A stretch of 64,000 nt of DNA. It comes from Lytechinus pictus (lineage: Eukaryota). Positions within the stretch are counted from its first letter, which is position 1. Every line of letters starts with the position of its first letter. Both the position numbers and the translations under genes were made by a program. This document shows positions 8,872 to 64,000 of the stretch, one piece after another. The notes beneath the pieces are model-generated. The model searched no databases and was not told the DNA's origin. It was given only the letters and a program-made list of their open reading frames with translations. Where the stretch lies: the NCBI RefSeq assembly GCF_037042905.1, contig NC_087250.1:26042001-26106000 (forward strand), written 5' to 3'.

Positions 8872-9990
8872 ACAGGTATGTGTACAGGTTTCCCTAGGAA
8901 ATTGTCACTGAAGGCTGGATTTTCAAACTCTATGGAATAGAATTCCACATGCAAGGCCCTGTATGAGCAAATCCCCGTTCTCCGCATGATTTCTTAGCAA
9001 CTGGAAGAGATTATCATTTGTAGCTTACAAAGCCTGCTACGTGTTTGGTCAATTATTTTTTGAAAGGCCATATTTTCTGAGCAATCATCCATTACCAGAA
9101 TTCAACCCAATACAAATTTGTCTAAGAGGAAAAAGAAAAATAATGCTGTCTAAGCGGAAAGGTTTACAAAGGTTTACAGTGCACATGTTTGCCTTAACAA
9201 AAAGAGATTTAGAAAACAAATCTTCAATTCAGAAATACCTTAGAATATTCATTATATATATAAATTCTTATTAAATCTTATAAAACAGTTAACAATACTA
9301 CTATAATTCTAGTTTAATGAAATGTGAAATGGAAATTACATAATTCATTTTCGTTTTGAGTGTAATTTATAAAATACTTTAAACAAGTATCATAAATGAT
9401 TATTAAAAATATGTTTGCAGCAAACAAATTAATTTCTAATCCTTTGCTTTTTACTTACGTTGATTTTTTTTTTTCGTAACACAAACTGATCACAATGCAC
9501 ACTTAATCATCACAAGTCATGAATGTTGCAACAGTCATTTACAAATCAATGGAGTATTGATACAAAATGGTCAAAATACAGAAATCGTATATAACCCGTG
9601 TGCAACTCTGGATTGTGAAAGAAAAAGAAAGTTGAAATTATTGATTGACACGACAAAGCCTTCATAGTACGCCTTCACATACCTAAACCAATTAAATCGA
9701 TTATCAATATCACTGGCCAAGGACATTTGAAAAAGAAGGTTGAAATTATTGATTGACAATAACCAATTAGATCGATTATTAAAAACACTGGCCGCAATCT
9801 TTCTAGCCCATTGATCCATGTATTCACTCTCCAAACACGTATTAGTTCTAGAGAACAGTAACCTCCTAATATCAGTACAAAACCGTAGACCCATGACATT
9901 ACCTTCAGTTATTTGAAAACGCAGATCTCACGGAAATTGCATTTCTTTCCGGAGGAGTCTAAATTCAGTGAGAATACATTCATTAATAAC

Positions 9991-10601
9991 TTAAAGGACA
10001 AGTCCACCCCAACAAAAACGTGATTTGAATAAAAAGAGAAAAATTCAACCAGCATAACACTGAAAATTTCATCAAAATCGGATGTAAAATAAGAAAGTTA
10101 TGACATTTTAAAGTTTAGCTTATTTCTAACAAAATAGTTATGTGAACGAGCCAGTTACATCCAAATGAGAGAGTCGATGATGTCACTCACTCGCTATTTC
10201 TTTTGTTTTTTATTATATGAAATATGAAATATTTTGATTTTCTCGTCATTGTCATGTGAAATGAAGTTTCATTCCTCCCTGAACACGTGGAATTCCATTA
10301 TTTTAACATTTTGTGCTTCAGGCAAGGAGGTCCTAATCGTCAAATCCGTAAAAATTGAAATATTGTATAATTCAAACAATAAAAAACAAAAGAAATAGTG
10401 AGTGAGTGATGTCATCGACTCTCTCATTTGGATGTAACTGGCTCGTTCATATAACTATTTTGTTAAAAATAAGCGAAACTTTGAAATGTCATAACTTTCT
10501 TATTTTACATCCGATTTTGATGAAATTTTCAGCATTGTGCTCGTCTGATTTTTCTATATTGATTCAAATCAAAATTTTTCTGAGGTGGACTTGACCTTTA
10601 A
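9991..10601. mobile_element. Kolobok-like MITE, same family as 8279-8871
   Basis: TTAA|AGGACAAGTCCACCCC ... GGTGGACTTGACCT|TTAA. Confidence 0.8.
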
Positions 10602-10661
10602 ATATACAACACGTTGAGAGCGTCCGGCATGGATCTGCTCTGCAACAGATCAATCCTGCGA

Positions 10662-12408: not shown

Positions 12409-15400
12409 TGTTAATGAGCAAATGAGCAAGATTTATCCAAGTCCTCTCGTGGCTGAATTCATATTCCTGCAAAATCTCGTTAAATGTGAGACTTTTTTCC
12501 CAAACATTTTGTTTCTCTCTTACAAATTCCAGTTGCCAAGAAATCATGCTGGGAGCGGGCCTTTGCTCATGCAGGACCTTGCCTGAAAACCCAGACTTCA
12601 GTGACCACCTTCAAGGGCAACCTGAAAACATACCTGTATGAGAGACTTATTGATAGACATTGACTTATTGATCAGACATGTATTATGTGTAAATAGTTTT
12701 TTGTTGTTCTGCTCTGAAGCGCCTAGAGCATCTAATCAAGATGGAAATTGCGCTATACAAATGTAATGTATTATTATTTATCATTATTAATTTGACCATT
12801 TTATCCTTGAGTAAAATTTATTATTTTTGTACCGTTGGAAAGAGTAAACCTTTCTCTCGTATGTTGATTATTTCTTCGGAATAAAATCTAAGACACTACA
12901 AGGGGAAGAGAGCTTGGTCACTTCGGCGATTTTTGAAACGATCGATTACGCTTTTGGGAAGGGCGCCCAATAGCGTCGAATAAGTAAACCTTTTTCTCAA
13001 CGGCACGGGACTGTGTATAAAATATATGGGGGAAATAAGAGAGGGCACCACGGCGGCACATTTGGTTAATTCCACCTCTTCTTTGCCAGAAATCTATAAG
13101 ATGTTTTCGTCTCTAATTGCAGCAAAAAATATTGAAGAAAAAAAATTGCGAAAAAGTACTCGACCATTTATCGCTAAGTTTTGTACATAACCCCAAATGG
13201 CAATACGCGACTGTCTACTTTCTCTACGCTGTAGGGTGCTCTTTCCTAGTGTTTCATTACATTTTTACTTTAATTATTGTTATTTTTCTTATTATCATTA
13301 TTATTGTTGTCATTATTATCATTATTATTATTATTATCATTATTGTTATTATTGTTTTTTTTTTGTTCATCAATATTATTAGCATTATTATTATTATTAT
13401 TAGGTGATATATCTATTGACATATAAATTTATGTTTCTACGCATTTTCTTTTTTATTTCGTTATTTTTATTATTTATTTTTCCCTTTTCACCATAATCTG
13501 CAAAACTCCAAAATGAATTCAAAATATTATCAGTTATGCGGACTTATCATGCGATGTGTACAAAACGAGTTCAAGGTCAAAGGTCACCATGACGTCATCT
13601 ACGAGACCAATTCTTTTTAAAGCACGTTATCAATCAAGATTATCTTCATTAACAATTTTTTTAAAATCCAACTTATTTACATTAACTTCAGGTCAGGTTA
13701 GGGGCGTTCAGGAAAGCATTTCAACAATATATTTGTCCGAACAGATGTCAGATCTGACTACTTTCCTTGGTTTTGATTGGCTGAGTAGCACTGTTGCTAT
13801 GGCAACTGTCGGATAAAACGTCTGACATCTTTTCATGAGACACTCCACAAATAACAATGCTAAAAGACACCACTAGATAATCGATTATAAACAAATTAGA
13901 GTCAGAAAAATATGTTATTTTAACAATTTTATTCCTTTTTTTCTAAACAAACCATCAACTTACATATTTTTTCAGTTTTTGACGCATTTAAAAAGATATA
14001 AAGTATAAAAGGTCTTCACACAAGTTTTCCTCTAGAAATATGATAACTTTGTAAATTGCCTATAAGCACATTATCGTTCGGTAAGGTGTTAATATTTAGT
14101 AGTGCATTAAACGTAATAATAATTCGATTTTCCGGTTGTCTGTCTATCTAACTAAAGAATTAACGCCAAGGAAACTGTTCAGGACTGCATTTATTGACTC
14201 ATAAATTGGATTCATAACTCACCGATCAAAAAATGCGAGCGCAAAGCGCACGAGCTCAAATTTTTTTTATATTCCAACCTGAAAACTGGACTTTTTTGGA
14301 ACCAAGAACAGGATTAGTACCGTACTTAGCAATAATTGATGCGAACATGATAAGAAAATTGTGATTTCTTAACCTAAAATGTATTATGTTTTACCAAAAA
14401 AAGGGTATTTCTTTTTTTAATGGCTTATTTCATTTGGAAAAAAGAGCATTTTCGATTTTTGAAAAGGGGTATTTTTCTACAGGGAATTTTCGGGGGGGGG
14501 GGGGGGGGCAAGAGAGGACCTGAAAATGAGTCATTTTTAGGACTTTTGTAAGTTTTCATGTTTTTCTGCTTACGACCACTTTTACATTTTATTTATCATT
14601 TTTTGTATCTTCTACACTACCAGAATGAAGAATACTAACAAAATAAAGTTATATTCAAAAGGATATAAAATAAACGGGACGCACCCCATACCCTTTGTTG
14701 GGGAGGGTAAATTTTATTTCTTAAAACAGTAAAACAGCGTTCTTTATTAAACCACATTGACACAAAAACAAGTAGGGTGATTATTTCCTTGAAACTGTAA
14801 GGGAAATTAAATTAATTGTCGAACCATATGATGAAAAAGAAGTAGACATTTTTTTACTTTGTTTTGTCAATCTGAGACAATTCACTCAGAATTACAAAAT
14901 ATATATACAATTGAGAAAAAAGACTTGCATTTGATCCTAAGTTTCTTGAAACGGTCCATATTAGGGAGATATCAATCGGAGGGGGTTCACAAAATAAATG
15001 GGGGGAAATACATAATCGATTACATATCATCCAGTTGAAATGTGTTTAGTTTCCCCCTTGACAAACCGTATTATAGCCCTTTTTACTGTTTTTTTTTTTA
15101 ATTAAATTTTTAATAATCATAAGTATGCGGGGTTTTTTTCCATGATAATTCAAAAAAGATTACAAGAATCACATCAACTATTTAAATTATGTATTTTGTT
15201 GGTCATATATGCTTAAATTTCCAGTAACTTTGTATCACCTATGGGTTGAGTGCAAAATAACCCCAATTTGTTAATGAGCAAATGAGCAAGATTTGTCCAA
15301 GTCATCTCGTGGCTGAATTCATATTCCTGCAAAATCTCGTTAAATGTGAGACTTTTTTCCCAAACATTTTTTTTCTCTCTTACAAATTCCAGTTGCCAAG

Positions 15401-18131
15401 AAATCATGCTGGGAGCTGGCCTTTGCTCATGCAGGACCTTGCCTGAAAACCCAGACTTCAGTGACCACCTTCAAGGGCAACCTAAAAACATACCTGTATG
15501 AGAGAGTTATTGATAGACATTGACTTATTGATCAGACATGTATTATGTGTAAATAGTTTTTTGTTGTCCTGCTCTGAAGCGCCTAGAGCATCTAATCAAG
15601 ATGGAAATTGCGCTTTACAAATGTAATGTATTATTATTTATCATTATTAATTTGACCATTTTATCCTTGAGTAAAATTTATTATTTTTGTACCGTTGGAA
15701 AGAGTAAACCTTTCTCTCGTATGTTGATTATTTCTTCGGAATAAAATCTAAGACACTACAAGGGGAAGAGAGCTTGGTCACTTCGGCGATTTTTGAAACG
15801 ATCGATTACGCTTTTGGGAAGGGCGCCCAATAGCGTCGAATAAGTAAACCTTTCTCTCAACGGCACGGGACTGTGTATAAAATATATGGGGGAAATAAGA
15901 GAGGGCACCACGGCGGCACATTTGGTTAATTCCACCTCTTCTTTGCCAGAAATCTATAAGATGTTTTCGTCTCTAATTGCAGCAAAAAATATTGAAGAAA
16001 AAAAATTGCGAAAAAGTACTCGACCATTTATCGCTAAGTTTTGTACATAACCCCAAATGGCAATACGCGACTGTCTACTTTCTCTACGCTGTAGGGTGCT
16101 CTTTCCTAGTGTTTCATTACATTTTTACTTTAATTATTGTTATTTTTCTTATTATCATTATTATTGTTATCATTATTATCATTATTATTATTATTATCAT
16201 TATTGTTATTATTGTTTTTTTTTGTTCATCAATATTATTAGCATTATTATTATTATTATTAGGTGATATATATATTGACATATAAATTTATGTTTCTACG
16301 CATTTTCTTTTTTATTTCGTTATTTTTATTATTTATTTTTCCCTTTTCACCATAATCTGCAAAACTCCTAAATGAATTCAAAATATTATCAGTTATGCGG
16401 ACTTATCATGCGATGTGTACAAAACGAGTTCAAGGTCAAAAGGTCACCATGACGTCATCTACGAGACCAATTCTTTTTAAAGCACGTTATCAATCAAGTT
16501 TATCTTCATTATCAATTATAAAAAAATCCAACTTATTTACCTCAACTTCAGGTCAGGTTAGGGGCGTTCAGGAAAGCATTTCAACAATATTTTTGTCCGA
16601 CCAGATGTCAGATCTGACTAATTTCCTTGGTTTTGATTGGCTGAGTAGCACTGTTGCTATGGTAACTGTCGGATAAAACGTCTGACATCTTTTCATGAGA
16701 CACTCCACAAATAATAATGCTAAAAGACACCACTAGATAATCGATTATAAACAAATTAGAGTCAGAAAAATATGTTATTTTAACAATTTTATTCCTTTTT
16801 TTCTAAACAAACCATCAACTTACATATTTTTTCAGTTTTTGACGCATTTAAAAAGATATAAAGTATAAAAGGTCTTCACACAAGTTTTCCTCTAGAAATA
16901 TGATAACTTTGTAAATTGCCTATAAGCACATTATCGTTCGGTAAGGTGTTAATATTTAGTAGTGCATTAAACGTAATAATAATTCGATTTTCCGGTTGTC
17001 TGTCTATCTAACTAACGAATTAACGCCAAGGAAACTGTTCAGGACTGCATTTATTGACTCATAAATTGGATTCATAACTCACCGATCAAAAATGCGAGCG
17101 CAAAGCGCACGAGCTCAATTTTTTATTTATATTCCAACCTGAAAACTGGACTTTTTTGGAACCAAGAACAGGATTAGTACCGTACTTAGCAATAATTGAT
17201 GCGAACGTGATAAGAAAATTGTGATTTCTTAACCTAAAATGTATTATGTTTTACCCAAAAAAAGGGTATTTCTTTTTTTTTAATGGCTTATTTCATTTGG
17301 AAAAAAGAGCATTTTCGATTTTTGAAAAGGGGTATTTTTCTACAGGGAATTTTCGGGGGAGGGGGCAAGAGAGGACCTGAAAATGAGTCATTTTTAGGAC
17401 TTTTGTAAGTTTTCATGTTTTTCTGCTTACGACCACTTTTACATTTTATTTATCATTTTTTGTATCTTCTACACTACCAGAATGAAGAATACTAACAAAA
17501 TAAAGTTATATTCAAAAGGATATAAAATAAACGGGACGCACCCCATACCCTTTGTTGGGGAGGGTAAATTTTATTTCTTAAAACAGTAAAACAGCGTTCT
17601 GTATTAAACCACATTGACACAAAAACAAGTAGGGTGTTTATTTCCTTGAAACTGTAGGGAAATGAAATTAATTGTCGAACCATATGATGAAAAAGAAGTA
17701 GACATTCTTTTACTTTGTTTTGTCAATCTGAGACACTTCACTCAAAATTAAAAAATATATATACAATTGAGAAAAAAGACTTGCATTTGATCCTAAGTTT
17801 CTTGCAACGGTCCATATTAGGGAGATATCAATCGGGGGGGGGTTCACAAAATAAATGGGGGGGAATACATAATCGATTACATATCATCCAGTTGAAATGT
17901 GTTTAGTTTCCCCCTATACAAACCGTATTATAGCCTATTTTACTGTGTTTGTTTTTTTTTTTTAATTTTTAATAATCATAAGTATGCGGGGTTTTTCTTC
18001 CATGATAATTAAAAAAAAATTACAAGAATCACATCAACTATTCAAATTATGTATTTTGTTGGTGATATATTCTTAAATTTCCATTAAAATAGTATCACCT
18101 ATGGGTTGAGTGCAAAATAACCCCAATTTGT
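12409..18131. repeat. Direct tandem duplication, 2 x ~2860 bp
   Basis: TGTTAATGAGCAAATGAGC starts at 12409 and 15269; both units end CCCCAATTTG. Scattered substitutions and homopolymer differences; duplicated ORFs appear in the track (13117/15977, 13556/16395). Confidence 0.95.
12545..12790 (+). mobile_element. L2-type LINE 3' end (duplicated at ~15405-15650; similar tail on - strand at ~8135-8215)
   Basis: FKGNLKTYLY followed by AAGCGCCTAGAGCATC...GCGCTATACAAAT...(TAT)n tail. Confidence 0.6.

Positions 18132-19820: not shown

Positions 19821-19912
<92 letters not shown>
19821..19912. repeat. (TA)n microsatellite (others at ~18775, ~20122, ~56526-56601, ~61295-61340)
   Basis: Direct read of the sequence. 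Confidence 0.95.
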
Positions 19913-19913
<1 letters not shown>

Positions 19914-20126
19914 AATGTGTGAAGTTATACATGTACAACAGCTTTGGCAACTCTTTTATTTAGATATTGTAAAGAAATGAATGAAGAGAACAATGGTAGG
20001 CGTAGCTTAAATCAAGGTTCCCCAGAGCTATCTACCCACCAATTTTTCCAAAGGGTAGATAGCTCTGGGGAACCTTGATTTAAGCTACGCCTACCATTGT
20101 TCTCTTCATTCATTTCTTTACAATAT
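19913..20126. mobile_element. Perfect 74-bp-arm hairpin plus ~50-bp tail between (TA)n tracts; same family as 56602-61290
   Basis: Arms 19964-20037 and 20053-20126 with a 15-nt loop. The arm matches 56602-56675. The tail 19913-19963 matches the reverse complement of ~61245-61295. Confidence 0.85.
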
Positions 20127-23694: not shown

Positions 23695-24858
23695 GGAGCT
23701 TGCAAAAGTTAAAATGATTTTATTGATATACTATTACAAATTAAATTTTGGCAAAATGGATGATTAGAATGATCAATTATATATAATTTAGAAAGTCTGA
23801 AAAAAAAAAAAATTAATATAAGAAATAATCAAGTATGAATCTTTTATACTTTAAGGACAGTATTTTTACATAATGAAATATATTCAAGTATACTTAAAAA
23901 TCATTCATAAAACGTGTATGTTTTCTTCCCGTAAATAAATACTATTTCGGTCAATATAAATTATAATCGATTGTTTTATTTCATTTTGATTCTATATGGT
24001 ACAAAATAATTTCTAGGTTCGAATCTCATCAAACAGTGCCGAGTTACACCTATAATACGTGTATAACTTCCTTAGAGTATCACCTGTAATTCATGTAGTC
24101 CCATATGTGCCTATCTGTGTATAGTACATTTGACCTGTTTCGTTTTCCAGGATGTTTCTTCCATAATAGAGTAATGTAACATTGATGGTTTTGTTTTGTG
24201 CCCATTTGTACAAAAGCGAAAAACATTGATATTTTCAGCTTTCAAGAACCAAGAAGTCACCATGAGTGCTTTAGATGGAGCTTGCAAAAGTTAAAATGAT
24301 TTTATTGATATACTATTACAAATTAAATTTTGGCAAAATGGATGATTAGAATGATCAATTATATATAATTTAGAAAGTCTGAAAAAAAAAAAAATTAATA
24401 TAAGAAATAATCAAGTATGAATCTTTTATACTTTAAGGACAGTATTTTTACATAATGAAATATATTCAAGTATACTTAAAAATCATTCATAAAACGTGTA
24501 TGTTTTCTTCCCGTAAATAAATACTATTTCGGTCAATATAAATTATAATCGATTGTTTTATTTCATTTTGATTCTATATGGTACAAAATAATTTCTAGGT
24601 TCGAATCTCATCAAACAGTGCCGAGTTACACCTATAATACGTGTATAACTTCCTTAGAGTATCACCTGTAATTCATGTAGTCCCATATGTGCCTATCTGT
24701 GTATAGTACATTTGACCTGTTTCGTTTTCCAGGATGTTTCTTCCATAATAGAGTAATGTAACATTGATGGTTTTGTTTTGTGCCCATTTGTACAAAAGCG
24801 AAAAACATTGATATTTTCAGCTTTCAAGAACCAAGAAGTCACCATGAGTGCTTTAGAT
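23695..24858. repeat. Apparently identical tandem duplication, 2 x 582 bp
   Basis: GGAGCTTGCAAAAG at 23695 and 24277. No differences seen by eye, including an identical 13-A run. Confidence 0.95.
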
Positions 24859-25539
24859 GATATTGATTTTTAATGATAATGACGATAACAGCTACAATTT
24901 ATAACGCTTTATATTGTACTTTTCTTGCAATTATTGTTCATGCTTACTTTTATAATTCATTTTCACTCAATGTCGGACAAAGTATGTATGAAATATTTGG
25001 GATATAATGAAAAATAGAGATTTCATTCTACTCAACTCAGTTTTCGGATGTGACACCTCATAGACAAGATGTGTCAGATAAAATTTATTTTGGATTAGTG
25101 ACGTCACAAACGAGCAGCTGCCCCAAATGTTATGTAATATCAAATGCATAAAACTAATTTTGTAGTGGTTGACGATGACTTATGTGAAATGATTTGTGTA
25201 TTGATAAACTAAAGGTTCAGTAAAAACCATTTCAATTTTCTGAGAAAATTACATTGCATTGTTTTTTCCAATTCAATTTAATTCAATTTATTCACATCTC
25301 TTTAAAAACATCAAAAGATCAAGTTTACAAATCAATACAAAATACAACATACATTATAGATAACATTATACAAGAAATGGTAAAGGTGAAGTGAGGACGA
25401 TGTGGGGGGTAAAAAAGTCAATTGCCTGTCAAGGTAAATCCCCGAATTTACCACACTTCAAAAATTATTACAAAATAACACATTACAAACACAAAGCTAA
25501 CAACATAAAACAACATAAAAGGCAATAAATAAAAAAAAA

Positions 25540-34744: not shown

Positions 34745-36220
34745 AAATATAATCTAGAAAGTCAAGAGGGGCCTAAGCTTTCGATCCGAGCAGAATCTTC
34801 GTCGGAGGCAAAATGACAAACATATAAAGTGGAACAACCATAATATAGACCACAGACAAGCTACAGCAACACTAGAGACAAGGAGACAAAAGGGGCATTA
34901 GTAAGTAGAGAAGACCAATCAGGTTAGTGAAGGGGATGAAAGAAAAGGAGTAGGCAGACACAAAGGGAAGTTAGTGTAAGTAAGGCCAGTAAAAGACCTC
35001 AAGCCAAGAGGGATTAAGATAATGAGGCAGGCAACATCAAACAGGATCTGGAACGAAACAGTGATAGAGGGTATGAGGAAGGGATGAATAACAATAGAAT
35101 TAGTGAGAGGTGGGTCAAACAGGTTACAAAGAAAGGCATAATAAACTGGTGCATAAGAGTGGGGGAAAAGGGAAAAGAATGGGGAACAACTGATAATGTG
35201 CAAAAGACATATAAGTATATATGATAAAGCATTAAACAAACTAAGAGAAGAAGGTAAGTGTAAAGATGTATCTATGAGTGATATGTATATAAATATATCC
35301 AAAAAAGAAATGTCTATGAAAAAATATAAATACACATATGGTGTAACTGATATTGTAATCCGCTATATAGGTGTGACGGGAAAAAAACATAAGACTATAT
35401 ATTAGAAGGAAAAAAAGAACAAAAAAAAAAAACAACTGTATATATGAAAAAGAGGAAGCAAATTGCCTAAAAAGGTAAAAGCAAATATAGAAGAGAGGGG
35501 GTGTATTATGAGGAAACCAAGTATACATGTTAATAAGCAAATGCTGTAAATCTAAAAGAGGTGAGTGGAGAAAAAAAAATATATATAATGATTATTATAT
35601 CGCCTGAATAAGGAAGGAAAAATTGGAGCTGAGCTTGTATGAGATATGGGAGGAAGGTAGAGGAAGAAACTATTCAAAAGAGCTGAGGGGAAAAAATATA
35701 TGTATATATAAATTGAATGTGGATAAGAAAGAATAACAGTCGTTCCCCTCTTGGATGTTCAGGCCATGAGGTTGGGTGGTTCGAAGTCGTCTCATCCAGA
35801 ACTTCTCTCTGCTAGTACGGACTGAGTCAGGACGGGTACCTAAAGATTCGATGCCCTGTAGCATCATGTCAGTGATGGAGTGCTTGGGGAGGTTAAAATG
35901 GCGGCCAACTGGAGTGTCCAGCTTTGCTGTGTTGACGGTGGATCCGTGCCCGTAGAATCGTTTCTTGAGTGTGGTCTTGGTCTCCCCTATGTATTGTACC
36001 TTACAAACTCTGCAAGTGATGAGATATACAACATTAGTTGTAGTGCATGTGATGTTGCCCTTGATTTGGTGAGACAGGCTGGTAGAGTTGCTGGTGAAAG
36101 TGTCGCCCTCGTGAAGGTGTATTTCACATATGATGCACCTGTTGCTGGTGCATTTGAAGGTGCCATGTTGTCGTGATTATGTAAGGTTAGGTATCTGAAT
36201 CTGAATAGTTGGGTCAGCAA
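34745..36220 (-). mobile_element. Penelope-like retrotransposon, 5'-truncated (Cys-rich linker + GIY-YIG endonuclease + 3' UTR)
   Basis: HGTFKCTSNRCIICEIH...ITCTTTNVVYLITCRVCKVQYIGETKTTLKKRFYGH...VGRHFN...REKFWMRRLRTTQPHGLN. A hammerhead-like motif lies at the 3' end. Confidence 0.9.
34771..34809 (-). ncRNA. Minimal hammerhead-like motif with altered core (CCGACGA)
   Basis: Minus strand GCCT-CCGACGA-AGATTC..GGATC-GAAAGCTT-AGGC; the core differs from CUGANGA at the second base. Confidence 0.5.
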
Positions 36221-36527: not shown

Positions 36528-36712
36528 GTCTGGGCGTTGTGGCGTGCGCCTGTAATCCAAGCTATGCGGGGAATTGGAAGTTACAAATTGATGCAGAGGT
36601 TCGAGCCCTGGTCACGTCTTTCGGATGGTGACGTTAAAGGTCGGTCCCAGACTTAAATAATCATATCTGATTGATACACGTCTGACAAAACTCAAATACA
36701 CACACACACACA
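36528..36712 (+). mobile_element. 7SL-RNA-headed SINE, copy 1
   Basis: Head CTGGGCGTTGTGGCGTGCGCCTGTAATCCAAGCTA resembles the 7SL/Alu 5' end. Then a B-box-like GGTTCGAGCCC, a Deu-like GTCTTTCGGATGGTGACGTTAAA and a (CA)n tail. Confidence 0.8.
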
Positions 36713-37874: not shown

Positions 37875-39276
37875 GTAAGCATTATAAAATTTATTTTGAA
37901 TAAAGAGAAAGAGTGTAGCTGTCTTCTGTTTGCCTGTTCGTACTTCAATAACCTGCGTGGCTTTTTGGTCGGTACATAGTGCATAGCCGTCTGCATTATA
38001 GCTAGTCGTTATGAGCTACAAGATCAGTGCACCGTATCACAAGGGGTTACAATAAATGAACATAAGACATTCATTGCCTTCTGAGCTCCGCCTTACAAGA
38101 AATAGCAATTGATCCGATCAACAACTATGGAAAGCCAGCAATGTTAACATACAAAATGCAGTTTTATTCAAAATGTTTCCTGAATATGATGTTCTACAGG
38201 CGTAATGAGAAAAAAAAAGCTAGCGGCCCAGATATGTCTCATCCGGTAAAATTTATTAAATGTAGCGAGCGAGAAAATGAATCCACAATTTTATTTTAAT
38301 TGATATGATTTTAATGTATCTTTAACAGGCCTATATAACCCCACATCGCATCATGCATTGGCTGTTCTCGGATTGAAAGGGAAATTCGCCCGGAAGAACA
38401 GTTCGTTTTAGATTTAAAAAAATGATTACAAATAATAGTGAAGGTTGGGGGAAAATTATTTAACCTTGGAAATTCCAAAGTTTGATTTTGTGACGTCATA
38501 AACGAGCAGGAGCCCCATATGCTATGTTATATGAAATAAATAATTTCAATTAAATGGTAATAATGAATTATGTTTTTGGTTTTCTTCTTAGGAACGGTCT
38601 AAAATGAGTTGTTTGTTGATATTCTAAGGGTACAGTAAAAGTATTTGTTCAATTTTCTGAGAAAATGGCATTTAATTTATTTTTTGGCCATACGATGTGT
38701 AGCCAGGCAGCTCGCATATGACGTCACAAATCATATAATTGAAATTTTAATAACTATTTACTCTTTGATGGATTTTTCTCTAACCTTCAGTAACCTTTTT
38801 TTTATCATTATTAATCTTGTGTTAGTTTTTACAATAAACTTTTGTCTTGGTGAACCTCCCTTTCAACTATGCCGGGGATTAAAAATTTTAGTGATAAATT
38901 TTAAATAAAATGGTGAAAAAAACATTCTTATTTTGTACCATTACTTTATTTCAAACATTCTATTAAGGGTTATAAAAAGTTTTCTAATAGGATTGACTAA
39001 AATAAAAAAAACCTTTAAACCAGCAAACGGAGGTCTCGACATAAAATCCCCCTCAAAGAAAAATATAATAAAAAAAATCAGCAGACATGCAAAACAAAAA
39101 TGTTTATTGATCGTAACTATTCTCAATTTAATATCATTGCAAGTCTGTCCTAACTCGCTGCATATCATATAGAGAGGGAGAAAGAGAGGGGGTGGGGGAA
39201 CTTATTGGTCAACTCAATATGAAAGTTTTCAAAGTTCAATTCTATTTCTTTTTTAACACGTAGAATTTCACCAGGA

Positions 39277-41217
39277 ATGCTAACTAAAATGGCCACCAAC
39301 GACAAAGACGTCCGACTTCAGGTACTTTTTTGTCCACTCTGTCTCGAAAATTTCAAGAAGGCAACCCTCCTCAACTGTGGCCATACATTTTGCATAAACT
39401 GCTTGGAGGTGTACGATGACAATAATCGCCATCTTGACCACATGGTATGTCCTGTATGCAAGGAGTGTACTAATCTTGGGGTCGAGCGGGTTGCAGAACT
39501 CGCTCCTAACTACCTGGCCAGGAATCTGGAGGAAGATTTGCACTTGTTGACAGAGACTCTCTCGCCGAACGTTTGCTTAGAACACGGTAGGATTTTCAGG
39601 GATATCTTCTGTGAAGATTGTCAGGAATTTGTTTGCCTCTATTGCTTCATGGACTGCCATCAGGGACATGCCATCAACAAGAAAGAGGAGTTAGATAGAG
39701 AATTTGAAGACAGGGAAAGGGCTCTTGTTCGTCAAAGCGATACCAGGAAGTCCCAGATGGAAAAGGCCATCAATAGTACTGAACAACACAACAACAAAAT
39801 ATCTTCTCATCTGAACGCTTTGAAATCACAGATTAGGGACCAGTTTGAACAAAAGAGAGCCATACTCCTGAAGAATGAAACATTGCTCTTGGACACTGTA
39901 AATGAACATAGATCAGCATTAAACAAGGCATGTGATAACTGGGTTGATCACAACAAGCGGCTAATAGACAAGATAAACAGCTCGTTGTCGGTGATACGAC
40001 GTAAAGCGACTCGCTTTGTTGATTTAAGCACCCTTGAAGCCCATAACCTACTTTGTGGTAACCTAGAGAACCTACTAGCAGAAAGTGTTGAAGGAACATC
40101 TTTGAGTGATGTTGGTCAAGAGATCAGGAGAATACATTTTTGTCCAGCAGATGACAAACTTCTCGAGCTTGGTCATCTGGTTTTCAGGGAAGTCAGTTAC
40201 TCAGCTAGTAAGGTCCACGCTGAAAATCAGTGTAGTGAAGAAGACGATAGTACCTCCTCAAAAGAATGTAATCAAGAAGATGAAAGTAGCACCTCAACTG
40301 TTATTGAATCTGAAGCTCCTGCAGAATGTAGCATCGAAAGTCGCGGCAATGCCATCGCTAACGGGGAATCAAGTGATGCCCAAGCGGTTGTACTGCCCGT
40401 ACAAGCCCAGATAAGAACCTACACACTGAGTATTGCAAGAAAGATAGATTTAGCAGGGTACATGCGAGGCATTGCTGCCCTTTCCCCTGATTCTGTCGTG
40501 GTCGGTTATGGATTGAACCGAAACGGTGCAGATCGTTTTTCGGTGTCTGGAGAAAAGAAACAATATTTGAAGGGTAAAGTCGGGCAGGTCTGGGACATTG
40601 CCTTCTTAGGCGATGAGAGGTCCGTCGTTTCGCATGGTGCTCAAGCTTGTAAGGTGTACGACGTCAACAATACATTCACCGGTCTTCAATATACCCGCAA
40701 GGAAGGCAACAACTACTTCAGCTTATGCAGTGACCGCAACGGGAAGATCTACGCAGTCAATAACAATCCGGAGATCTACATCTTCGAAGGCACAACTGCT
40801 AACCCTCAGCAAATCGTGTCGACGGGGAACATTAAGCCAGAACACATCTGTATCACCAGATCAGGGTGGATGATCACTACCACGTGTTGCATCACACCAA
40901 GTCGGATCAACCTCTACGATAGGCAAGGCCATGTTGGTATCTCGCTTACTGCAAGTGATAACCATGAATATCTGTATGCTGCTGTGGATAGCGAGGAGAG
41001 GGTACTGGTGGCGAGAGTTCGTGAGAGATCGACCGCGTTCAAGCTGGCGCTGTACAGAATCCAAGAAACAAGACTCGTAGAGGAAAAGGCGTTTGCTCCA
41101 ATCAAACTCCCGCGACAAATCAAATGCAAATGGTGTTACATGGTAAGTCTCACACCAAACATGCTCGCGTTTGCCACGTTGGATCATCACTTGTATTTTA
41201 TTGAGCTTCTGATGTAG
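39277..41217 (+). CDS. Tripartite-motif (TRIM) E3 ubiquitin ligase-like protein: RING, B-box2, coiled coil, acidic linker, NHL-like beta-propeller
   Basis: Intact 646-aa ORF. C3HC4 RING (CPLC..CGHTFCINC..CPVC) and B-box (CLEH..FCEDCQEFVCLYC..HQGH). Helical region follows, then C-terminal propeller-type repeats (MRGIAALSPDSVVV, VWDIAFLGD, KPEHICITRSGWMI). Confidence 0.92.
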   Translation: MLTKMATNDKDVRLQVLFCPLCLENFKKATLLNCGHTFCINCLEVYDDNNRHLDHMVCPVCKECTNLGVERVAELAPNYLARNLEEDLHLLTETLSPNVCLEHGRIFRDIFCEDCQEFVCLYCFMDCHQGHAINKKEELDREFEDRERALVRQSDTRKSQMEKAINSTEQHNNKISSHLNALKSQIRDQFEQKRAILLKNETLLLDTVNEHRSALNKACDNWVDHNKRLIDKINSSLSVIRRKATRFVDLSTLEAHNLLCGNLENLLAESVEGTSLSDVGQEIRRIHFCPADDKLLELGHLVFREVSYSASKVHAENQCSEEDDSTSSKECNQEDESSTSTVIESEAPAECSIESRGNAIANGESSDAQAVVLPVQAQIRTYTLSIARKIDLAGYMRGIAALSPDSVVVGYGLNRNGADRFSVSGEKKQYLKGKVGQVWDIAFLGDERSVVSHGAQACKVYDVNNTFTGLQYTRKEGNNYFSLCSDRNGKIYAVNNNPEIYIFEGTTANPQQIVSTGNIKPEHICITRSGWMITTTCCITPSRINLYDRQGHVGISLTASDNHEYLYAAVDSEERVLVARVRERSTAFKLALYRIQETRLVEEKAFAPIKLPRQIKCKWCYMVSLTPNMLAFATLDHHLYFIELLM

Positions 41218-56522: not shown

Positions 56523-56605
<83 letters not shown>

Positions 56606-59600
56606 GAAAGAAATGGATGAAGAGAACAATGGTAGGCGTAGCTTAAATCAAGGTTCCCCGGAGCTATCTGCCCTTTTTTGGAAAAAAATTGGTAATGCCG
56701 AAAAAAATGTCTCTGCCGGGAATCAAACCCGGGCCCTGTTACACCCACACATGTAATAATCGCCCACAAATGTAATAACGCCCACAAATGTAATAACACT
56801 TTACCCATAAATGTAATAATTTCACCCACAAATGTAATAATGCACTTAACCCACAAATGTAATAATTTTTGATCGCCCACAAACATGACAAATGTAATAA
56901 TGACTTTACCCACATTTTGAAGGGATTTTTGGCGAATCCGTTTTAAACTAACATCCGATAGTAATGCATTCATATAGCACAAAAGTGCAAAGTCTTTTTT
57001 TCCAGACCCGGTTAATGCAAAGATTATAATATAAGTCCAAACTAAGATACGATAATGATATTCCAGTGGAATAAAAATAAGAATCGAGCTCAGTCTTTTC
57101 TCCAGACCCAATTAGAACTGGTGGAATAAATGTATTTGTTGTTGTTTTAACTTATACGGCGCGTATTGTGAATATATGCGCTAAGAGTAAATTGAGAATC
57201 AAGCGTAGTCTTTTCTCCAGACCCGGTTACTTAAAACTAAAAACTAAAACCCTTTACCCACAAATGTAATAATGCACTTTACCCACAAATGTAATAATTT
57301 TTGATCGCCCACAAATCTAATAATGACTTTACCCACAAATGTTATAAACTTGAAGGGATTTTTGGCGAATCTGTTCTAAAGTAAAACCCTATAGTAATGT
57401 GTTCATATAGCTCAAAGTCACAGTCTTTTTTCTCCAGACCCGGTTATGTAAAACATCGTAACAGTTTAGCGTAGTCTTTCCTCCAGACCCAAATATTTCA
57501 AATAACAAATAAAAAATAATAAACAATAATAAAAAAAAGACCCCACGATCTTATTCATTTTGAACAAAATGTAAAAAGAACAAAAACAGACCCTGCAATC
57601 TTTTCAACACTGAATAGCGTGTGTGTGTGTGTGTGTGTATTTGAGTTTTGTCAGACGTGTATCAATCAGATATGATTATTTACGTCTGGGACCGACCTTT
57701 AACGTCACCATCCGAAAGACGTGACCAGGATTCGAACATCTGCATCAATTTGTAACTTCCCCACGTAGCTTGGATAACAGGCGCACGCCGCAACGCCCAG
57801 CATCGAAATATGGTGTAGTCTTTGTTCCAGCCCCGGTTATTTCAAAATAGCAAATCATAAAGAACAATATCAACAAAGACCCCACAATCTCATTGATGTT
57901 GAATAACTTGAAAATATAGCGTAGACTTTCTTCAAGACCCAGTTTTTTTTAAATAACAAATCATAAAAAAGATATATAATAATAATAAAACAAAGGCCCC
58001 ACAATCTATTGATGTTGAATAACTGTTGTCGTTGTTGTTATCTTTGGTTTTGAGGCGCGTACCATTCAGATATGAATATTCACATGGAAATATAGCGTAG
58101 TCTTCCCTCCAGACCCACTTATTTCAAAATTACAAATAATTTTAAAGAGTCAACAAGTAACAAAGACCACCACTATCTTATTAATGTTAAATAACATGGA
58201 AATATAGCGTAGTCTTTCATCCAGACCCAGATCTTCAAATAACAAATGATGAATAATAATAATAAATAAATAATAAGAAGAAAAACAAACAAAAGAACCA
58301 CGATCCTATTTATGTTGAATAACATGGAAATATAGCGTAGTCCTTCATCCAGACCCAGTTATAAAAATCATTAAAAACACAACAACAACAACAAAACAAA
58401 GACCCTGCAATGTTATCAACATTGAATAACATGGAAATATGGTGTAATCTTTGCTCCAGACCCAGTTATTTCAAAATAGGAAATTATCAGAAACAATAAA
58501 AACAAAAAAAAAACAATATTTACAAAGACCCCCCAATATCATTGATGTAGAATAACGTTGTTGTTGTTGTTATTTTGGGTTTTAAGGCGTGTATCATTCA
58601 GATATGAATATTTACGCCTATGATTAATTTGTCGTTTGTGGTATGCGTTATCATAAGGTTTTTATAGTTTGGAAGATGCTGGGGTCTAAGTTTAAAGATT
58701 AAAGTTTCGCTCAAATTGTATTTTTAAGAGAACTGGGTGTGGGGTAAAGACAACACTCTTAACCCAAGCATTTTAACTGGGTTTAATTTTGAAGATTGGT
58801 CTTAGCTTTCATTTTTTGTTCCATATTTATTTATCTTTTAAAAAACCGGGTCTAGACGAAAGACTAAGCATAATACTCGTGTTATTCCACAGGAATAAGA
58901 ATTTGACAAAGTCTTATGTTTTTAAGATTGTTTGAATTATTTTTCAAATGACTGGCTCTGGAATAATGACAACGCTCTAAACATGTGCTTTTCTACATAG
59001 TCTCAATCTGGAGGATTGTTGGTTCTTAGATTCGTTGTTGGGGGTTGGGTTTTATTGTTTTATTTATTCTTGAAATAAATGTGTCAGGAGGAAAGTCTAC
59101 AATCGATCTTCATGTTATTCCACAGTAATTAGATTATTGGGTATTCGTTTTAGAATATTTGTAAAAACTATTTTATTTTTTTCAAATAATAACCAAGTCT
59201 GGATAAAGGATGTTTGCTTTACCCATGCATTATTACAATGTTTTGTAGGGGTCTTAGTATCATTGAAAAAAAAAACTGGGTGTGGGGTAAAGACATATTT
59301 TTTTACTGGGTGTAACTTTTGAAGATTGGTCTTAGATTTGAAGTTTTTTTAATTCATTTTGTAAATAACCGGGTCTGGAGGAAAGAGTACGTTTTAAAAC
59401 TCGTGTTATTCCACAAGAATTAGAATATGATAGGGTCTTACGTTAGAATATTTTTTTTCGTAAGTTTTTTTTTTATGATTAGGTCTGGAATAAAGACAAC
59501 GCTCTGAACCTCTTTTTAAAACAGGTTCTTAGGTTGAAAGATTGTTTGGTCTTAGATTTGGAATTTTTTAAGTATTACTATTAGCGTTAAAAAAAAATGG

Positions 59601-61299
59601 GTTTGGCTGAAAGACTATGCTATATGTCCATGTTATCCAGCATTAATACGATTATGGGGTCTTTGTTTTTTTTTTTTTTTGTATTGTTATTTATAATTTT
59701 GGAATAACAGGGTTTGGAGGAAAGACTAAGCTCGATTTTCATTTTTATTCCACTGGAATATCGTTATGGTATCTTAGTTTGGACTTATATTATAATTTTT
59801 GAAACAACCGGGTTTGGAAAAAAGACTTTAGACTTATATTATAATTTTTGAAACAACTGGGTCTGGAAAAAGGATTTTGCAGTTTTGTACTATATGAACG
59901 CAATACTATAGGGTTTTAGTTTTTAGTTTTAAGTAACCGGGTCTGGAGAAAAGACTACGCTTGATTTTCAATTTACTCTTAGCGCATATATACACAGTAC
60001 GCGCCGTATAAGTTAAAACAACAACAAAGACATTTATTCCACCAGTTTTAATTAACTGGGTCTGGAGACAAGACTAAGCTCGATTCTCATTTTTATTCCA
60101 CTGGAATATCATTATCGTATCTTACTTTAGACTTATATAATAATTTTTTAAACAACAGGGTCTGTAAAAAAGACTTTGGACTAATATTATAAGTTTTGAA
60201 TTAACCGGGTCTGGAAAAAAGACTTTTCACTTTTGTGCTATATGAACGCATTACTTTAGGATTTTAGTTTAGAACGGATTCGCCAAAAATCCCTTCAAAT
60301 TTATTAAATTTGTGGGTAAAGTCATTATTACATTTGTGGGTGAAATTATTACATTTATGGGTAAAGTGTTATTACATTTGTGGGCGTTATTACATTTGTG
60401 GGTAAAGTGTTATTACATTTGTGGGCGTTATTACATTTGTGGGTGCAACAGGCCCCCAGCTTTGAACGCCGGTGCCTTAACCACTAGACCACAGAGACGG
60501 GTTAGTGGCTAGGGCGACCCCGATCCGACTGATCGTCAGATAAACAGATTTTCGACACTAATACCAATTATAATTTCCTTTGTCGGATGTAGGTGGGTTT
60601 TGAACAATGACAAGCCGCCATTGTTATCTTCATCCATTCCTTTCACAAAATATTTAAAGGACAAGTCCACCCCAAGAAAAAGTTTGAATAAAAAGACAAA
60701 AATCCAACTAGCATAACACTGAAAATTTCATCAAATTCGGATGTAATATAAGAAAGTTATGACATTTTAAAGTTTCGCTTAATTTCACAAAACAGTTCTA
60801 TTCACATCCTGGCTGGTATGCAAATGAAGAAAATATGACGTCATCCACTCACTATTTCTTTTGTATTTCATTATACGAAATATGAAATATTCTAATTTTC
60901 TCTTCATTGTCAAGTGATGCAACGAATAATTCCTCCCTGAACATGTGGAATTAGATTGTTTAATACTATATGGTCCAGTCAAGTTGGTCCTTATTGTTAA
61001 ATGTATACAAAATAAAATATTGTACCATTCAAACAATAAAAAACAAAATAAATAGTGAGTGACGGACATCATCGATTGAGTCACCTAGTTGTACATATCA
61101 CTGTTTTGTGAAAAATAAGCAAAACTTTAAAATGTCATAATTTTCTTATTTTACATCCGATTTTGATGAAATTTTCTGCACTATGCTAGTTTGATTTTTC
61201 TTTATTTATTCAAGTCAGCATTTTCCTGGGGTGGACTTGACCTTTAAATAAAAGAGTTGCCAAAGCTGTTATACATGTCTAATTTTACACATTTATATA

Positions 61300-61344
<45 letters not shown>

Positions 61345-61972: not shown

Positions 61973-62817
61973 CTATGGCAACCAAATGAAAAAATAAAAT
62001 AAAAGGGAAATTAATGGAAATAACACGTTGGATTTTTTTTTTTTTGTGGGGGGGGGGGGTGGAGTCGTGATATGTGCAAACGCCGGGATATGTGCAAACA
62101 ACGGTATATGTGCAAAATTTTGCCGGGATTTGTACAAACAACGGAATTTGTGCAAACGCCACGCCGGTAAATGTGCAAATCTGTCAAAATTTATCAACGG
62201 CATCTGTGCAAACGTGACGACGGGATATGTGCAAATGAACAATTTTCACGGGAAAATTGCAAACCTCCGGAATATGTGCAAATCACTGCATTTATCCATA
62301 TAAAGGCTATTTCTCATGAAATGTTTCAGTCATAAAAAAAAATTGTTAAAAATGAGAAACATGCCTGCATAAGGGAGAAGCTACAATGACATCGGCAATG
62401 AAACGCTTTTCAGAAAGGCGGCGGGGGGGGGGGGCACCAACCTTAAATTGAAGACCCACTATCGTTTGGAATAACATGGATGTAGAGTGTAGTCTTTTAA
62501 TGCTCCAGACCCGGTCATTTAATCATTTGAAGATCCTTCTGAACTAAGATCCTGTACTAAAGCATGCATAAGGAGCATAGCCATTCAAAAATAATAAAAA
62601 AAACTGCAACACCTCACCGTCTACCAAATTAAGACCTTGTAGAAATGAATATAGAATGTAGTCTTTACCCTAGACCTTGTTGTGTCAATAACAAAAAAAA
62701 ATCAAATACAATACCTCACCGTCTAATTCCTATCGAATAAGTTGTTGTTGCTGTTGTTGTTTTAGCTTATACGGCGCGCGTCATTCATTAGTGAATATTT
62801 GCGCCAAAAAAACCACA

Positions 62818-62903
62818 TCCACCGAGCCGGATTCGAACCAGCGACATAAGGTTAATCATCAATCATCTACAGTCCTCCGCTCTACCAACTGAGCTATCGG
62901 TGG
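62818..62903 (-). tRNA. tRNA-Tyr(GTA), intron-containing variant (possibly pseudogene)
   Basis: CCACCGA TAGCTCAGTTGGTAGAGC GGAGGA CT GTA G [13-nt intron] AACCTT ATGTC GCTGGTTCGAATCCGGC TCGGTGG A, with a T7 terminator 5 nt downstream; A31-A39 mismatch. Confidence 0.75.
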
Positions 62904-64000
62904 TTACTAGGTTTAAAGTGTAGTTTTTGCTCCAGACCGGGTGATTAAAAAAATTCTAAACTATTTAAGCCCCGCCATCTTCCACTACTAAGACTCTGTT
63001 ATGAAGAACGTGTATATAACGTATTCTCAATTCTCCAGACCCGTTTATTTAAACAAATTTTCAAGACCCCACAGTCTCATTCCTGTGAAAAAGATGGATA
63101 TAAAGCGTTGTGTTTTCTCCAGACCTTTGATTAAAAAACCTTCAGAATTAAGACCCAAGACTAATGGGGCGTTGCAAGAAATTTACGTTGCAATTGATTG
63201 CAAATCGACTGCAACTTTGCAGCCGATTCCGATCGACTGCAACTAGCAATCAATCGCCAATTTGCGTTGCAAGAAAAAGGCTTGCGATTGAACGCAAGTT
63301 GCAGCTGATCTGCAGACGATTTGCAGCTGTAAACAGGGTCTGCAGCACAAGACTAGCCGAAAAAGCAAAATAATGGCTTGCAACAATCCTGTTTGTGGAA
63401 GAGAGTAAGTAGAAAATATTCATTTTTCAGACAATTCTTTCTCCATTATGTATGTTTTTAGAGAATTTATATATTTTAGACCTATGCCAGTGAAAAAAAA
63501 TTATTTTGAAAAAAGTGAAACTGTATCTTTATCGCCGGTCGAAATTTCACCTTCAACAAATTTTCTACCGTACAATTTCAATCCCAGTCCCACACTTGAC
63601 TTTTTGTGTCGGTAATGCACGGTTGTATCAACAACACGGCAGGTCATTGCCGGTGCAGTGCTGTTAAAAATCACCCAGAAGCAAGTAAATGTGTAGGCTC
63701 TAATTATGTATGAAACATCGAAAATGACCTTCAAAGATTATTTTTGTGCCTATTTGAAATGATTTTTTAAGTTATATCGGTTTCAACGGAGAATAGCCAT
63801 CCAGTAAATAGAAATTAAAGACTTCCATTACAATTTACAGTCTAGACATTTCCACAAAAAAAAAATCCTCTCCATTTGTCTCTCTTTTTTTATGAGTCTG
63901 TCTAACGTTACCTCGAGCGAAGTTCGTGCAGGCCCTACTTCACTTCACTACCGCTACACTACGCTCCACCTACCCGAACTTCGAGACTGAACTCTATCTG

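Follow-up and report, generated by a model that had tools for sequence, protein, structure and literature searches.

A tRNA-Glu-like module with a UCA anticodon in a putative Penelope-mobilized repeat with abundant RNA

The window analyzed here, a 64,000-nucleotide stretch of Lytechinus pictus DNA (NC_087250.1, positions 26,042,001 to 26,106,000 of the forward strand), contains a tRNA module that is split by a nested foldback element (Table 1; 56736-60451 are alternative ends of this element). As originally predicted, removal of the insertion together with one copy of its target duplication yields a 72-nt tRNA, which is called by ARAGORN at the default threshold; in the native, unexcised window, the only tRNA called is a tRNA-Tyr. 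The duplication, given as GGCCC, is ambiguous and can be read as 5-bp GGCCC with TGT..ACA element ends or as 3-bp GCC with CTG..CAG ends, but the same tRNA is rebuilt either way. The rebuilt molecule has the described 7-bp acceptor stem, paired D, anticodon, and T stems, GT-TCA-AA loop, and 4-nt variable loop, is followed immediately by a T7 terminator-like run, and carries A73 besides. Of the two letters called non-canonical, G32 is family-wide, whereas T56 is decay of the window copy only; TTCGA is present in loose ends of RNA reads and of X1 contigs. The assertion that this is not tRNA-Sec holds, as the 7/5 acceptor/T stems, the 4-nt variable loop, and A73 leave the UCA anticodon as the sole likeness, with neither a long variable arm nor a 9/4 (13-bp) acceptor-T axis. 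The ARAGORN "SeC" label follows the anticodon alone, and Rfam gave no tRNA-Sec match on the 5' half of the tRNA. The Rfam scan returned a sub-threshold tRNA match to this half (17.3 bits) and chance matches, with no ribozyme or known ncRNA family. The window copy is dead: it is split by 3.7 kb, and its own junction is covered by RNA at a depth of 2-7, compared with about 28,000.

Table 1. Positions of the features discussed (window coordinates; "." marks features with no strand assigned)
Feature	Position	Strand	Remark
Second same-family head-to-head insertion in (TA)n	19912..20125	-	without tRNA
Left target tract, (TA)n	56526..56601	.	
3' part of inverted tRNA-bearing unit copy: trailer, including second T7 run	56602..56700	-	same end point as second insertion
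Second T7 run, within trailer	56682-56688	-	
T7 run, Pol III terminator-like	56701..56707	-	directly behind discriminator
tRNA module, 3' part (variable-loop end, T arm, 3' acceptor strand, A73)	56708..56736	-	
Nested 3.7-kb foldback element, long modular inverted repeats	56737..60450	.	splits tRNA
SINE inside nested foldback element	57624-57800		
Target duplication, second copy (GGCCC or GCC)	60451..60455	.	
tRNA module, 5' part (acceptor 5' strand, D arm = A box, anticodon arm)	60456..60498	-	
Anticodon TCA	60465-60463	-	G32 at 60467
Antisense ("anti-tRNA") stretch	60499..60553	-	directly upstream of tRNA
Further upstream unit part	60554..60621	-	partner of trailer in predicted rod; 5' truncation point 60621
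Direct, strongly 5'-truncated second unit copy (unit 3' end)	60618..60657	+	
Nested MITE, TTAA (or TTTAAA) duplication	60658..61243	.	more copies elsewhere in window
One-sided tail of direct copy	61248..61291	+	then (TA)n 61294-61341

The module is transposon-borne, as had been claimed, but its carrier is a head-to-head Penelope-type insertion rather than an element with terminal inverted repeats. The 31-bp "inverted repeats" represent the 3' end common to two truncated copies of the unit, which are joined head-to-head within (TA)n and have a tail on one side. The description of these repeats as flanked by (TA)n fits the left arm (56602-56632), which is the end of the inverted copy and lies flush on (TA)n without a tail; it fails for the right arm (60618-60648), where a 586-bp nested MITE and a tail of ~45-50 nt precede the (TA)n. 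In 16 X3 contigs, the MITE is absent and 60658 is joined straight to the tail. The two copies meet via a 4-nt overlap (60618-60621). The second insertion of the family has the same end point and tail and is made up of two short arms that match exactly over about 70 nt. In two of two insertions in the window, an inverted 5'-truncated copy stands beside a direct copy, and in two of two a tail occurs at one end only within a (TA)n target.

The 31-nt motif occurs four times in the window versus 0.05 expected by chance, and its inverted placement at both ends could point to a non-autonomous DNA transposon of the TIR or Helentron type with a captured tRNA-like gene, as could the asymmetric end and small 3' hairpin, which we take to recall Helentron-type ends. 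Such an origin is largely refuted and very improbable. The arms are asymmetric and variable in length between copies (31 nt versus about 70 nt identical), no target duplication is legible in the (TA)n flanks, and the strand switches at varied places in 8 of the 15 listed joints. Moreover, the junction at 60621 is not common to the family: more than 20,000 reads per run continue past it with other letters (26,083 in X22 and 21,043 in X23), and 29 and 31 DNA contigs depart there. Because these reads and contigs leave the window sequence for another sequence that they share, the 31-bp repeats are not fixed termini. Features of a tRNA-derived SINE are likewise not seen, as the tRNA is preceded by 123 nt and at least 73 nt more of family sequence at like depth and has a T7 run directly behind it.

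An inverted 5'-truncated copy, a 30-40-bp tail at one end, and a (TA)n bias are described for Naiad and Chlamys PLEs (Craig et al. 2021, PMC8557442), and Naiads are reported there to lack a hammerhead. The window insertions resemble these elements and non-autonomous Chlamys derivatives such as MRC1 in the inverted copy, one-end tail, (TA)n target, and lack of target duplication and hammerhead, and differ from Naiad/Chlamys in having no ORF and a tail of about 45-50 nt; the portion consulted describes no tRNA module in Naiad/Chlamys. The presumed moving element is most likely of this TA-targeting Naiad kind. The supplements of the same paper may hold echinoderm Naiads. No autonomous PLE sharing the unit 3' end was found among the window's PLE fragment and the metagenome and viral contigs. 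The fragment, which is of the GIY-YIG type, has no sequence in common with the unit and is ruled out by sequence as the partner. Exact-pattern scans for the element found no loci among either metagenome or viral contigs; an acceptor-stem pattern matched two viral loci, one a non-tRNA and one a CUA-anticodon tRNA, which were judged near chance. No type I hammerhead core was present in the 301 + 84 + 226 nt scanned, and a control PLE end was recovered. One permuted-order hammerhead regex match was rejected, its stems being unable to form by eye and its core being lost in the read majority.

With the D- and T-arm motifs of the module, 11 tRNAs were retrieved, eight Glu and three Gly, the closest being a Glu-CTC (L005; 56 of 75 aligned columns) from a 1.9-kb MAG contig that is probably host DNA. 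The module shares with it the 5' strand and loop of the D arm, the T arm, the 4-nt variable loop, and A73. In contrast, a one-pair shift and rebuilding distinguish its acceptor and anticodon stems, which are still fully paired, and G1:C72, G32, and the loop ending UCA-AA differ. Stems rebuilt in this way call for selection on the cloverleaf itself, which argues against a passenger cassette, that is, a module that has the same Penelope-type carrier and abundant RNA but merely inherited its A and B boxes, owes its uniformity to a recent burst from a few masters, and undergoes no tRNA processing, the rod structure described below being an old snap-back duplication relic that merely stabilizes the RNA. 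We rate this alternative at about one chance in four. It has a precedent in Helenus TRIMs, which bear tRNA-like sequence in their LTRs; some families give Sup-CTA predictions, and the stop-anticodon tRNA predictions reported there all come from Helenus elements (Kojima 2024, PMC10886601). The unit likewise appears to be a non-autonomous retroelement with an internal tRNA-like module and a stop-anticodon prediction. Unlike Helenus TRIMs, it shows neither paired LTRs nor a primer site or polypurine tract, is inserted head-to-head in (TA)n, and has a terminator directly behind the tRNA and an antisense mask. Helenus (TRIMp3) is characterized by two direct LTRs enclosing a PBS and a PPT and by a 4-5-bp duplication; the window contains no direct repeat of the tRNA-bearing part.

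Reads from two DNA and two RNA runs bear out that TCA and the fold are kept across the family. At a threshold of 5%, no variant letter was found in the anticodon arm, D arm, or 5' acceptor strand, and G32 had none in any of the four runs. Over all runs, the 123-nt flank has about 16 variable sites and the 48 nt of tRNA have none (p 0.005, with unequal DNA depth as a confounder), which speaks against a passenger. The statistics for excess conservation of the tRNA over the flank are weak in RNA (5 flank versus 0 tRNA sites, p 0.19) and in the copy-versus-majority comparison (p 0.28), as a passenger would allow. Summed contig depth was not equated with copy number; a likeness of 82% may let in true tRNAs and further tRNA-like repeats, and the loose end at 60454 in X3 had an agreement of 0.58.

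The family is represented by abundant RNA. In two rRNA-depleted 151-nt libraries from one study (X22 and X23; these RNA runs are labelled organism B and the DNA runs organism A), 61,530 of 8,710,588 and 50,808 of 8,252,136 reads belong to it (0.6-0.7%, over a 170-nt piece). Strand depth at 60472-78 is 33,921 versus 27 and 28,528 versus 14 (over 1000:1), the tRNA-sense assignment assuming a dUTP library. The RNA covers the tRNA and both flanks. Of the two readings proposed, a structured cassette used by the element is favored, but hardly as a simple Pol III cassette, because the RNA continues through the T7 run and reaches some 200 nt or more upstream. Loose read ends have median lengths of 73-75 nt on either side, compared with about 21 nt for RNA simulated to end at T7. 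No pile-up of molecule starts or ends was seen in the RNA reads, tRNA boundaries included, in keeping with a passenger. Long-RNA libraries are unable to reveal a mature 72-nt tRNA. The missing ends and two-way read extension fit a circle and a multimer alike. Sense depth over the last 40 nt of the unit is about 215 and 157, <1% of the tRNA depth, which may be due to mapping loss (DNA depth is low there too) or to RNA stopping short. The very high abundance and strict strand bias would also suit a domesticated host ncRNA, or a satellite transcript of one or a few loci with the dispersed copies as retrocopies. This is very unlikely, as the RNA carries several variants at 11-50% and several templates are therefore transcribed; the lack of a matching Rfam family also weighs against it.

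The 301 known nt are predicted to fold at -99.9 kcal/mol (z -3.95, 0 of 300 shuffles), compared with z -1.54 and 23 of 300 for the opposite strand; a 202-nt fold of leader, tRNA, and T7 run is not significant (z -1.52, 22 of 300). The tRNA is directly preceded by a 55-nt antisense stretch, which is complementary to the D arm, variable loop, T arm, 3' acceptor strand, and T run and skips the anticodon arm. The long RNA is therefore predicted to form a rod in which the acceptor, D, and T arms are opened and only the anticodon arm is exposed. Among 1362 random window pieces, 5 reach the net gain from this upstream piece, as do 2 of 500 shuffles; with read-majority letters, the figures fall to 1 and 0, respectively. 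Three of four read-majority letters strengthen the rod; of 11 minor alleles, six weaken it, two are neutral, and three strengthen it. Co-evolution of the antisense piece with the derived tRNA letters was unsupported in three tests, as tRNA-Glu is paired as well as the own tRNA, another point consistent with a passenger. The crude energy gain is -24.8 for the own tRNA (reached by 11 of 907 random pieces) versus -17 to -33 for the 11 fetched tRNAs, the net gain is -12.0/-19.0 versus -20.1/-21.5 for L005, and alignment scores are split (L005 49 versus own 46 with the window copy; own 57 versus L005 53 with majority letters).

Could the module be a working opal suppressor? Intact copies would be transcribed by Pol III from the A and B boxes, with a short leader and a T7 stop, giving a charged mature tRNA(UCA) that reads UGA; Trp would be the likeliest charge, the partner might have an in-frame UGA, and the long RNA would be compatible with this. 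The family-wide UCA and canonical TTCGA and the two T7 runs would suit such a function, as would A36-A37-A38, G1:C72, and A73, which we take to resemble UNN-reading and Trp tRNAs. Position 32 of tRNAs is almost always a pyrimidine, and the fixed G32 of the family is thus a point against. With leaders of 0-9 nt, the acceptor stem is computed to pair with a probability of 0.99-1.0, which drops to 0.04 for 12 nt and to 0 for 15 nt and longer. The predicted cloverleaf thus folds at leaders of up to 9 nt, close to the typical length of about 10 nt (PMC7954030), and is lost with at least 12 nt or on predicted read-through into the trailer. In-frame UGA codons do occur in some Naiads, but at Cys positions and together with SECIS elements (PMC8557442), and the window tRNA has neither U73 nor the Sec fold. 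A suppressor present in many copies would also be expected to carry a cost. Overall, we consider a working suppressor improbable; a role of the tRNA in the life cycle of the repeat itself is more likely than stop-codon reading.

Our preferred explanation, to which we give slightly better than even odds, is that the locus holds a dead copy of a high-copy, non-coding, Penelope-moved repeat that resembles a retrozyme and has a tRNA-Glu-like module in place of the hammerhead. Animal retrozymes give abundant, highly self-paired RNAs of 170-400 nt (Cervera & de la Pena 2020, PMC7229834) and are reported to be PLE derivatives (Li, Clavereau & Pollet 2026, bioRxiv 10.64898/2026.07.22.740005, the main text of which has 0 occurrences of "tRNA"). 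The unit is like these animal non-LTR retrozymes in being non-coding and a few hundred bases long, in its very abundant RNA, predicted to be highly self-paired, and in its Penelope link, and unlike them in having a complete tRNA module and no hammerhead core in the parts scanned. In plant retrozyme and viroid circles, the ribozyme is blocked by a complementary stretch (PMC7229834), much as the antisense piece is predicted to mask the tRNA. The RNA would be a unit-length circle or multimer, probably not a plain Pol III product because it crosses a T7 run, and would act as a template for the reverse transcriptase of the partner, to be copied into TA tracts. In the weakest step, the cloverleaf would be retained because its transient folding allows host tRNA-handling machinery to cut the unit or launch it; the antisense stretch would then lock the tRNA against recutting. 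UCA would have arisen from the remodelled anticodon arm of a tRNA-Glu and be held by the element's own structure rather than by decoding. Because 5'-to-3' synthesis yields the antisense stretch ahead of the tRNA, the masked fold would be expected to form before the cloverleaf, which weakens the processing step; the reads contain no cut sites. A bolder version, to which we assign roughly a one-in-four probability, is a ribozyme-less, viroid-like circular RNA retroelement of animals that relies on host tRNA machinery instead of a hammerhead. In this version, the remodelled tRNA marks the site of multimer cutting and closure, the antisense stretch locks it with only the UCA loop displayed, and a UGA-reading tRNA may arise as a second product from Pol III transcripts of the same DNA that have a short leader.

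No report of tRNA-bearing non-autonomous Penelope elements or of the window family was found in the titles, abstract openings, and text passages searched, mostly from outside subscription journals and Repbase Reports. If the preferred explanation is correct, an undescribed kind of Penelope passenger yields one of the most abundant non-ribosomal RNAs of the animal, offers a possible answer to how hammerhead-less Penelope-type elements make unit-length templates, and provides a natural two-state tRNA, masked in long RNA and foldable in short. A working UGA suppressor at such a copy number would be very surprising. Counts of "SeC/suppressor" tRNAs in such genomes can stem from a single repeat family.

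Scripted removal of the inner insertion, a nested 3.7-kb foldback element (56737-60450), together with one GGCCC rebuilt a 72-nt tRNA that was called by ARAGORN at its default threshold. A T7 run lies directly behind it, with a second T7 run 12 nt further on, so both the complete UCA cloverleaf and the Pol III-type terminator of the original prediction were recovered. Placing the ends of the insertion at 56736-60451 with a 3-bp duplication gave identical tRNA results. The rebuilt tRNA does not show the features that define tRNA-Sec; this identity was rejected, as had been expected.

The family was then examined in sequencing data. Four of 24 runs were mapped on 60451-60660 at 82% likeness: DNA contig sets X1 and X3 (organism A, two studies) and raw stranded rRNA-depleted RNA runs X22 and X23 (organism B, one study; ~6% of each run sampled). 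Of 24 variant rows at ≥5% in 60451-60660, none fell within 60451-60501 in the four runs. The conservation of TCA across copies was therefore confirmed and the non-canonical G32 is likewise a family trait, while the non-canonical T56 is decay private to the window copy, since the T loop reads TTCGA in the loose ends of reads and contigs. Evidence for stronger conservation of the tRNA than of its flank is weak: p was 0.19 in the RNA runs (5 flank sites against 0 in the tRNA), 0.28 for the window copy against majority letters, and 0.005 in all runs (~16 against 0), where the tRNA has several-fold greater DNA depth, to which further tRNA-like sequences may contribute. All 11 loci retrieved with a D-/T-arm motif pattern are tRNAs, 8 for Glu and 3 for Gly, the nearest being a Glu-CTC tRNA (L005; 56 of 75 columns match). 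Compared arm by arm, the acceptor and anticodon stems of the element resemble Glu stems displaced by a single pair; an outer pair is new, and the acceptor carries one double change. Within the limits of the search pattern, the module may thus be a remodelled tRNA-Glu in which the former last stem base became G32. Such a shift would account for both G32 and UCA with no need for selection on decoding, and the complete stems suggest that the cloverleaf remained fully paired during the change.

The carrier is a head-to-head pair of 5'-truncated copies, not an element with terminal inverted repeats (TIRs). The window holds four occurrences of the 31-nt motif, where chance predicts 0.05. Beyond 60621, the truncation point of the tRNA-bearing copy, 26,083 (X22) and 21,043 (X23) RNA reads continue into another, common sequence (agreement 0.96 in RNA), as do 29 and 31 DNA contigs (X1, X3), and tRNA-strand depth in the window sequence drops to 7 and 2 in the two RNA runs. 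The junction at 60621 is therefore peculiar to the window copy, which together with the shared end points indicates two truncated copies of one unit with their 3' ends in common. The tRNA had been described as lying between 31-bp inverted repeats flanked by (TA)n; only the left motif abuts (TA)n, the right side is asymmetric, and a DNA transposon is accordingly very improbable. Penelope-like elements (PLEs) are described by Craig et al. (PMC8557442) as inserting with one inverted, 5'-truncated copy, a tail of 30-40 bp at a single end and a preference for (TA)n; Naiads lack a hammerhead in that account. The locus shares these insertion features, with a tail of ~45-50 nt. Non-autonomous Chlamys derivatives are described in the same paper. 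No autonomous partner of the unit was found, and the unit shares no sequence with the window's GIY-YIG PLE fragment (34.7-36.2 kb).

The stretch draws 61,530 of 8,710,588 reads (0.71%) in X22 and 50,808 of 8,252,136 (0.62%) in X23. Given the usual dUTP layout, the dominant strand is tRNA-sense (33,921 against 27 and 28,528 against 14 at 60472-78), which is also the sense implied by the fixed 3' end of the unit. RNA depth crosses G1 without a step, and no sites where many molecules start or stop were found along the stretch in the two RNA runs. The median length of loose ends in RNA was 73-75 nt beyond 60621, on the upstream side, and 73 nt at the 3' side (407 and 343 scorable reads); with fragment sizes assumed, simulated T7-ended RNA gave ~21 nt, and medians near 60-68 required at least 130 nt. 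The RNA therefore passes the terminator and extends ~200 nt or more upstream, and is neither a pre-tRNA nor a SINE transcript. Because RNA variants stand at 11-50%, several templates are transcribed; abundant as the RNA is, a host ncRNA is highly unlikely. Sense depth over the last 40 nt of the unit is only ~215 and ~157, which counts against a full-unit RNA and probably reflects reads of a short, mismatched segment failing to map, DNA depth being low at this place as well. This library type cannot display a mature 72-nt tRNA. Site 60601 is 50:50 in both RNA runs and <1% in both DNA runs; this may reflect a difference between species or populations or a transcribed subfamily and, as the DNA is not matched to the RNA, possibly editing.

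Folding predictions for the long RNA leave the tRNA masked. The adjoining 55 nt on its upstream side are complementary, though imperfectly (37 Watson-Crick and 8 G-U pairs), to the D arm, variable loop, T arm, 3' acceptor strand and T run; the anticodon arm has no counterpart in them. The known 301 nt are predicted to form a single rod in which upstream sequence is also paired with the trailer, the part 3' of the tRNA and T7 (z -3.95; 0 of 300 shuffles; opposite strand -1.54). The 134-nt core gave z -3.45 (opposite strand -2.43), and a 202-nt cut without the trailer was not significant (z -1.52). Pairing of the D arm with the 18 nt nearest to the tRNA has an energy of -21.7 kcal/mol, a value that none of 5000 shuffles attained. 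Of 1362 random pieces, 5 matched the net gain of the upstream piece, as did 2 of 500 shuffles; with four read-majority letters, three of which strengthen the rod, the counts were 1 of 1362 and 0 of 500. The antisense piece fits the Glu tRNA and the element's tRNA about equally, giving no support for co-evolution with the latter. Predicted anticodon-arm pairing stays at 0.85-0.99 with long leaders. By eye, the 30-nt loose-end consensus past 60621 forms a hairpin with arms equal and complementary to the anticodon loop (8-nt match), and another, partial match is present there; a partner for the loop may thus also lie inside the unit. In T7-ended RNA, predicted acceptor pairing is 0.99-1.0 for a leader between 0 and 9 nt, falls to 0.04 with 12 nt and is 0 with longer leaders. 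A working UGA suppressor would have to come from short-leader Pol III transcripts; leaders are typically ~10 nt (PMC7954030), and we regard this reading as unlikely.

We lean modestly towards the locus family being a non-autonomous Penelope passenger operating like an animal retrozyme, a hammerhead-bearing element. Retrozymes are described as abundant, strongly self-paired RNAs of 170-400 nt (PMC7229834) and are argued to derive from PLEs (bioRxiv 10.64898/2026.07.22.740005). The unit behaves alike without being one: no hammerhead was found in its visible parts, and where plant retrozyme and viroid circles have a ribozyme blocked by a complementary stretch (PMC7229834), the predicted mask blocks a tRNA. 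The cloverleaf would form transiently in the unit RNA so that the unit could be cut or launched by tRNA-handling machinery of the host, after which the tRNA would be locked; G1 lies at or beside the terminal loop of the predicted rod, a position that would bring cut ends together. This proposal is weakest in that the antisense piece is synthesised before the tRNA. Less probable is a passenger cassette, with the same carrier and abundant RNA but with the tRNA as a mere inherited A/B-box cassette that takes part in no tRNA-processing step. Stop-anticodon tRNAs within a retroelement have a precedent in Helenus, the source of every Sup-CTA prediction in two genera of rust fungi (PMC10886601); by its features the unit is not a Helenus, a SINE or a TIR element. 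A literature search, with Repbase and supplements outside its scope, returned no account of the unit family, and none of a Penelope passenger that bears a tRNA.

Coordinates of features in the window
Feature	Position	Strand	Remarks
Rebuilt tRNA	56708-56736 joined to 60456-60498	-	7-bp acceptor; one G-U each in D and anticodon stems; 4-nt variable loop; A73
Anticodon loop			G32-U33-UCA-A37-A38
Left 31-nt motif			adjoins (TA)n
Right 31-nt motif	60618-60648		then nested TTAA-flanked MITE (60658-61243), tail of ~45-50 nt, (TA)n
Second insertion	19912-20125		inverted arm with same end point, direct arm with same tail; arms identical over ~70 nt; no tRNA
tRNA-Tyr(GTA) gene	62818-62903	-	intact, intron-bearing, T terminator; context 62469-63137
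SINE pair	57624-57800; 36530-36712		92% identical; one copy nested in inner foldback element
Penelope-like fragment	~34750-36180	-	5'-truncated; C-terminal GIY-YIG domain (Pfam 2.4e-05)
Minimal hammerhead core	near 34779-34805		in the GIY-YIG fragment
MITE family, ~590 bp	60658-61243; 8279-8872; 9991-10604; 7265-7635		TTAA/TTTAAA duplication; GGA/TCAAGTCCACCCC ends; presumably Kolobok- or piggyBac-like
664-codon unbroken frame	39223-41217	+	RING and B-box domains (TRIM-like)
Tandem duplication	12409-18131		~2.86 kb, 97% identity
Exact tandem	23695-24859		583 bp

By its content the window is eukaryotic: it contains microsatellites, SINEs, MITEs and an intron-bearing tRNA-Tyr. A foldback-type element may in turn carry this tRNA-Tyr gene, which sits amid repeat modules that also occur in the inner foldback element (62752-62807 is similar to 57137-57184, and GTAGTCTTT..CCAGACC modules recur). 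Elsewhere, a pattern scan fetched a CUA-anticodon tRNA (L013, 301-374; Pyl by ARAGORN) on a 223-kb viral contig; its acceptor stem and T arm are as in the element's tRNA, a likeness that is probably chance, given that the locus was fetched by an acceptor-stem pattern.
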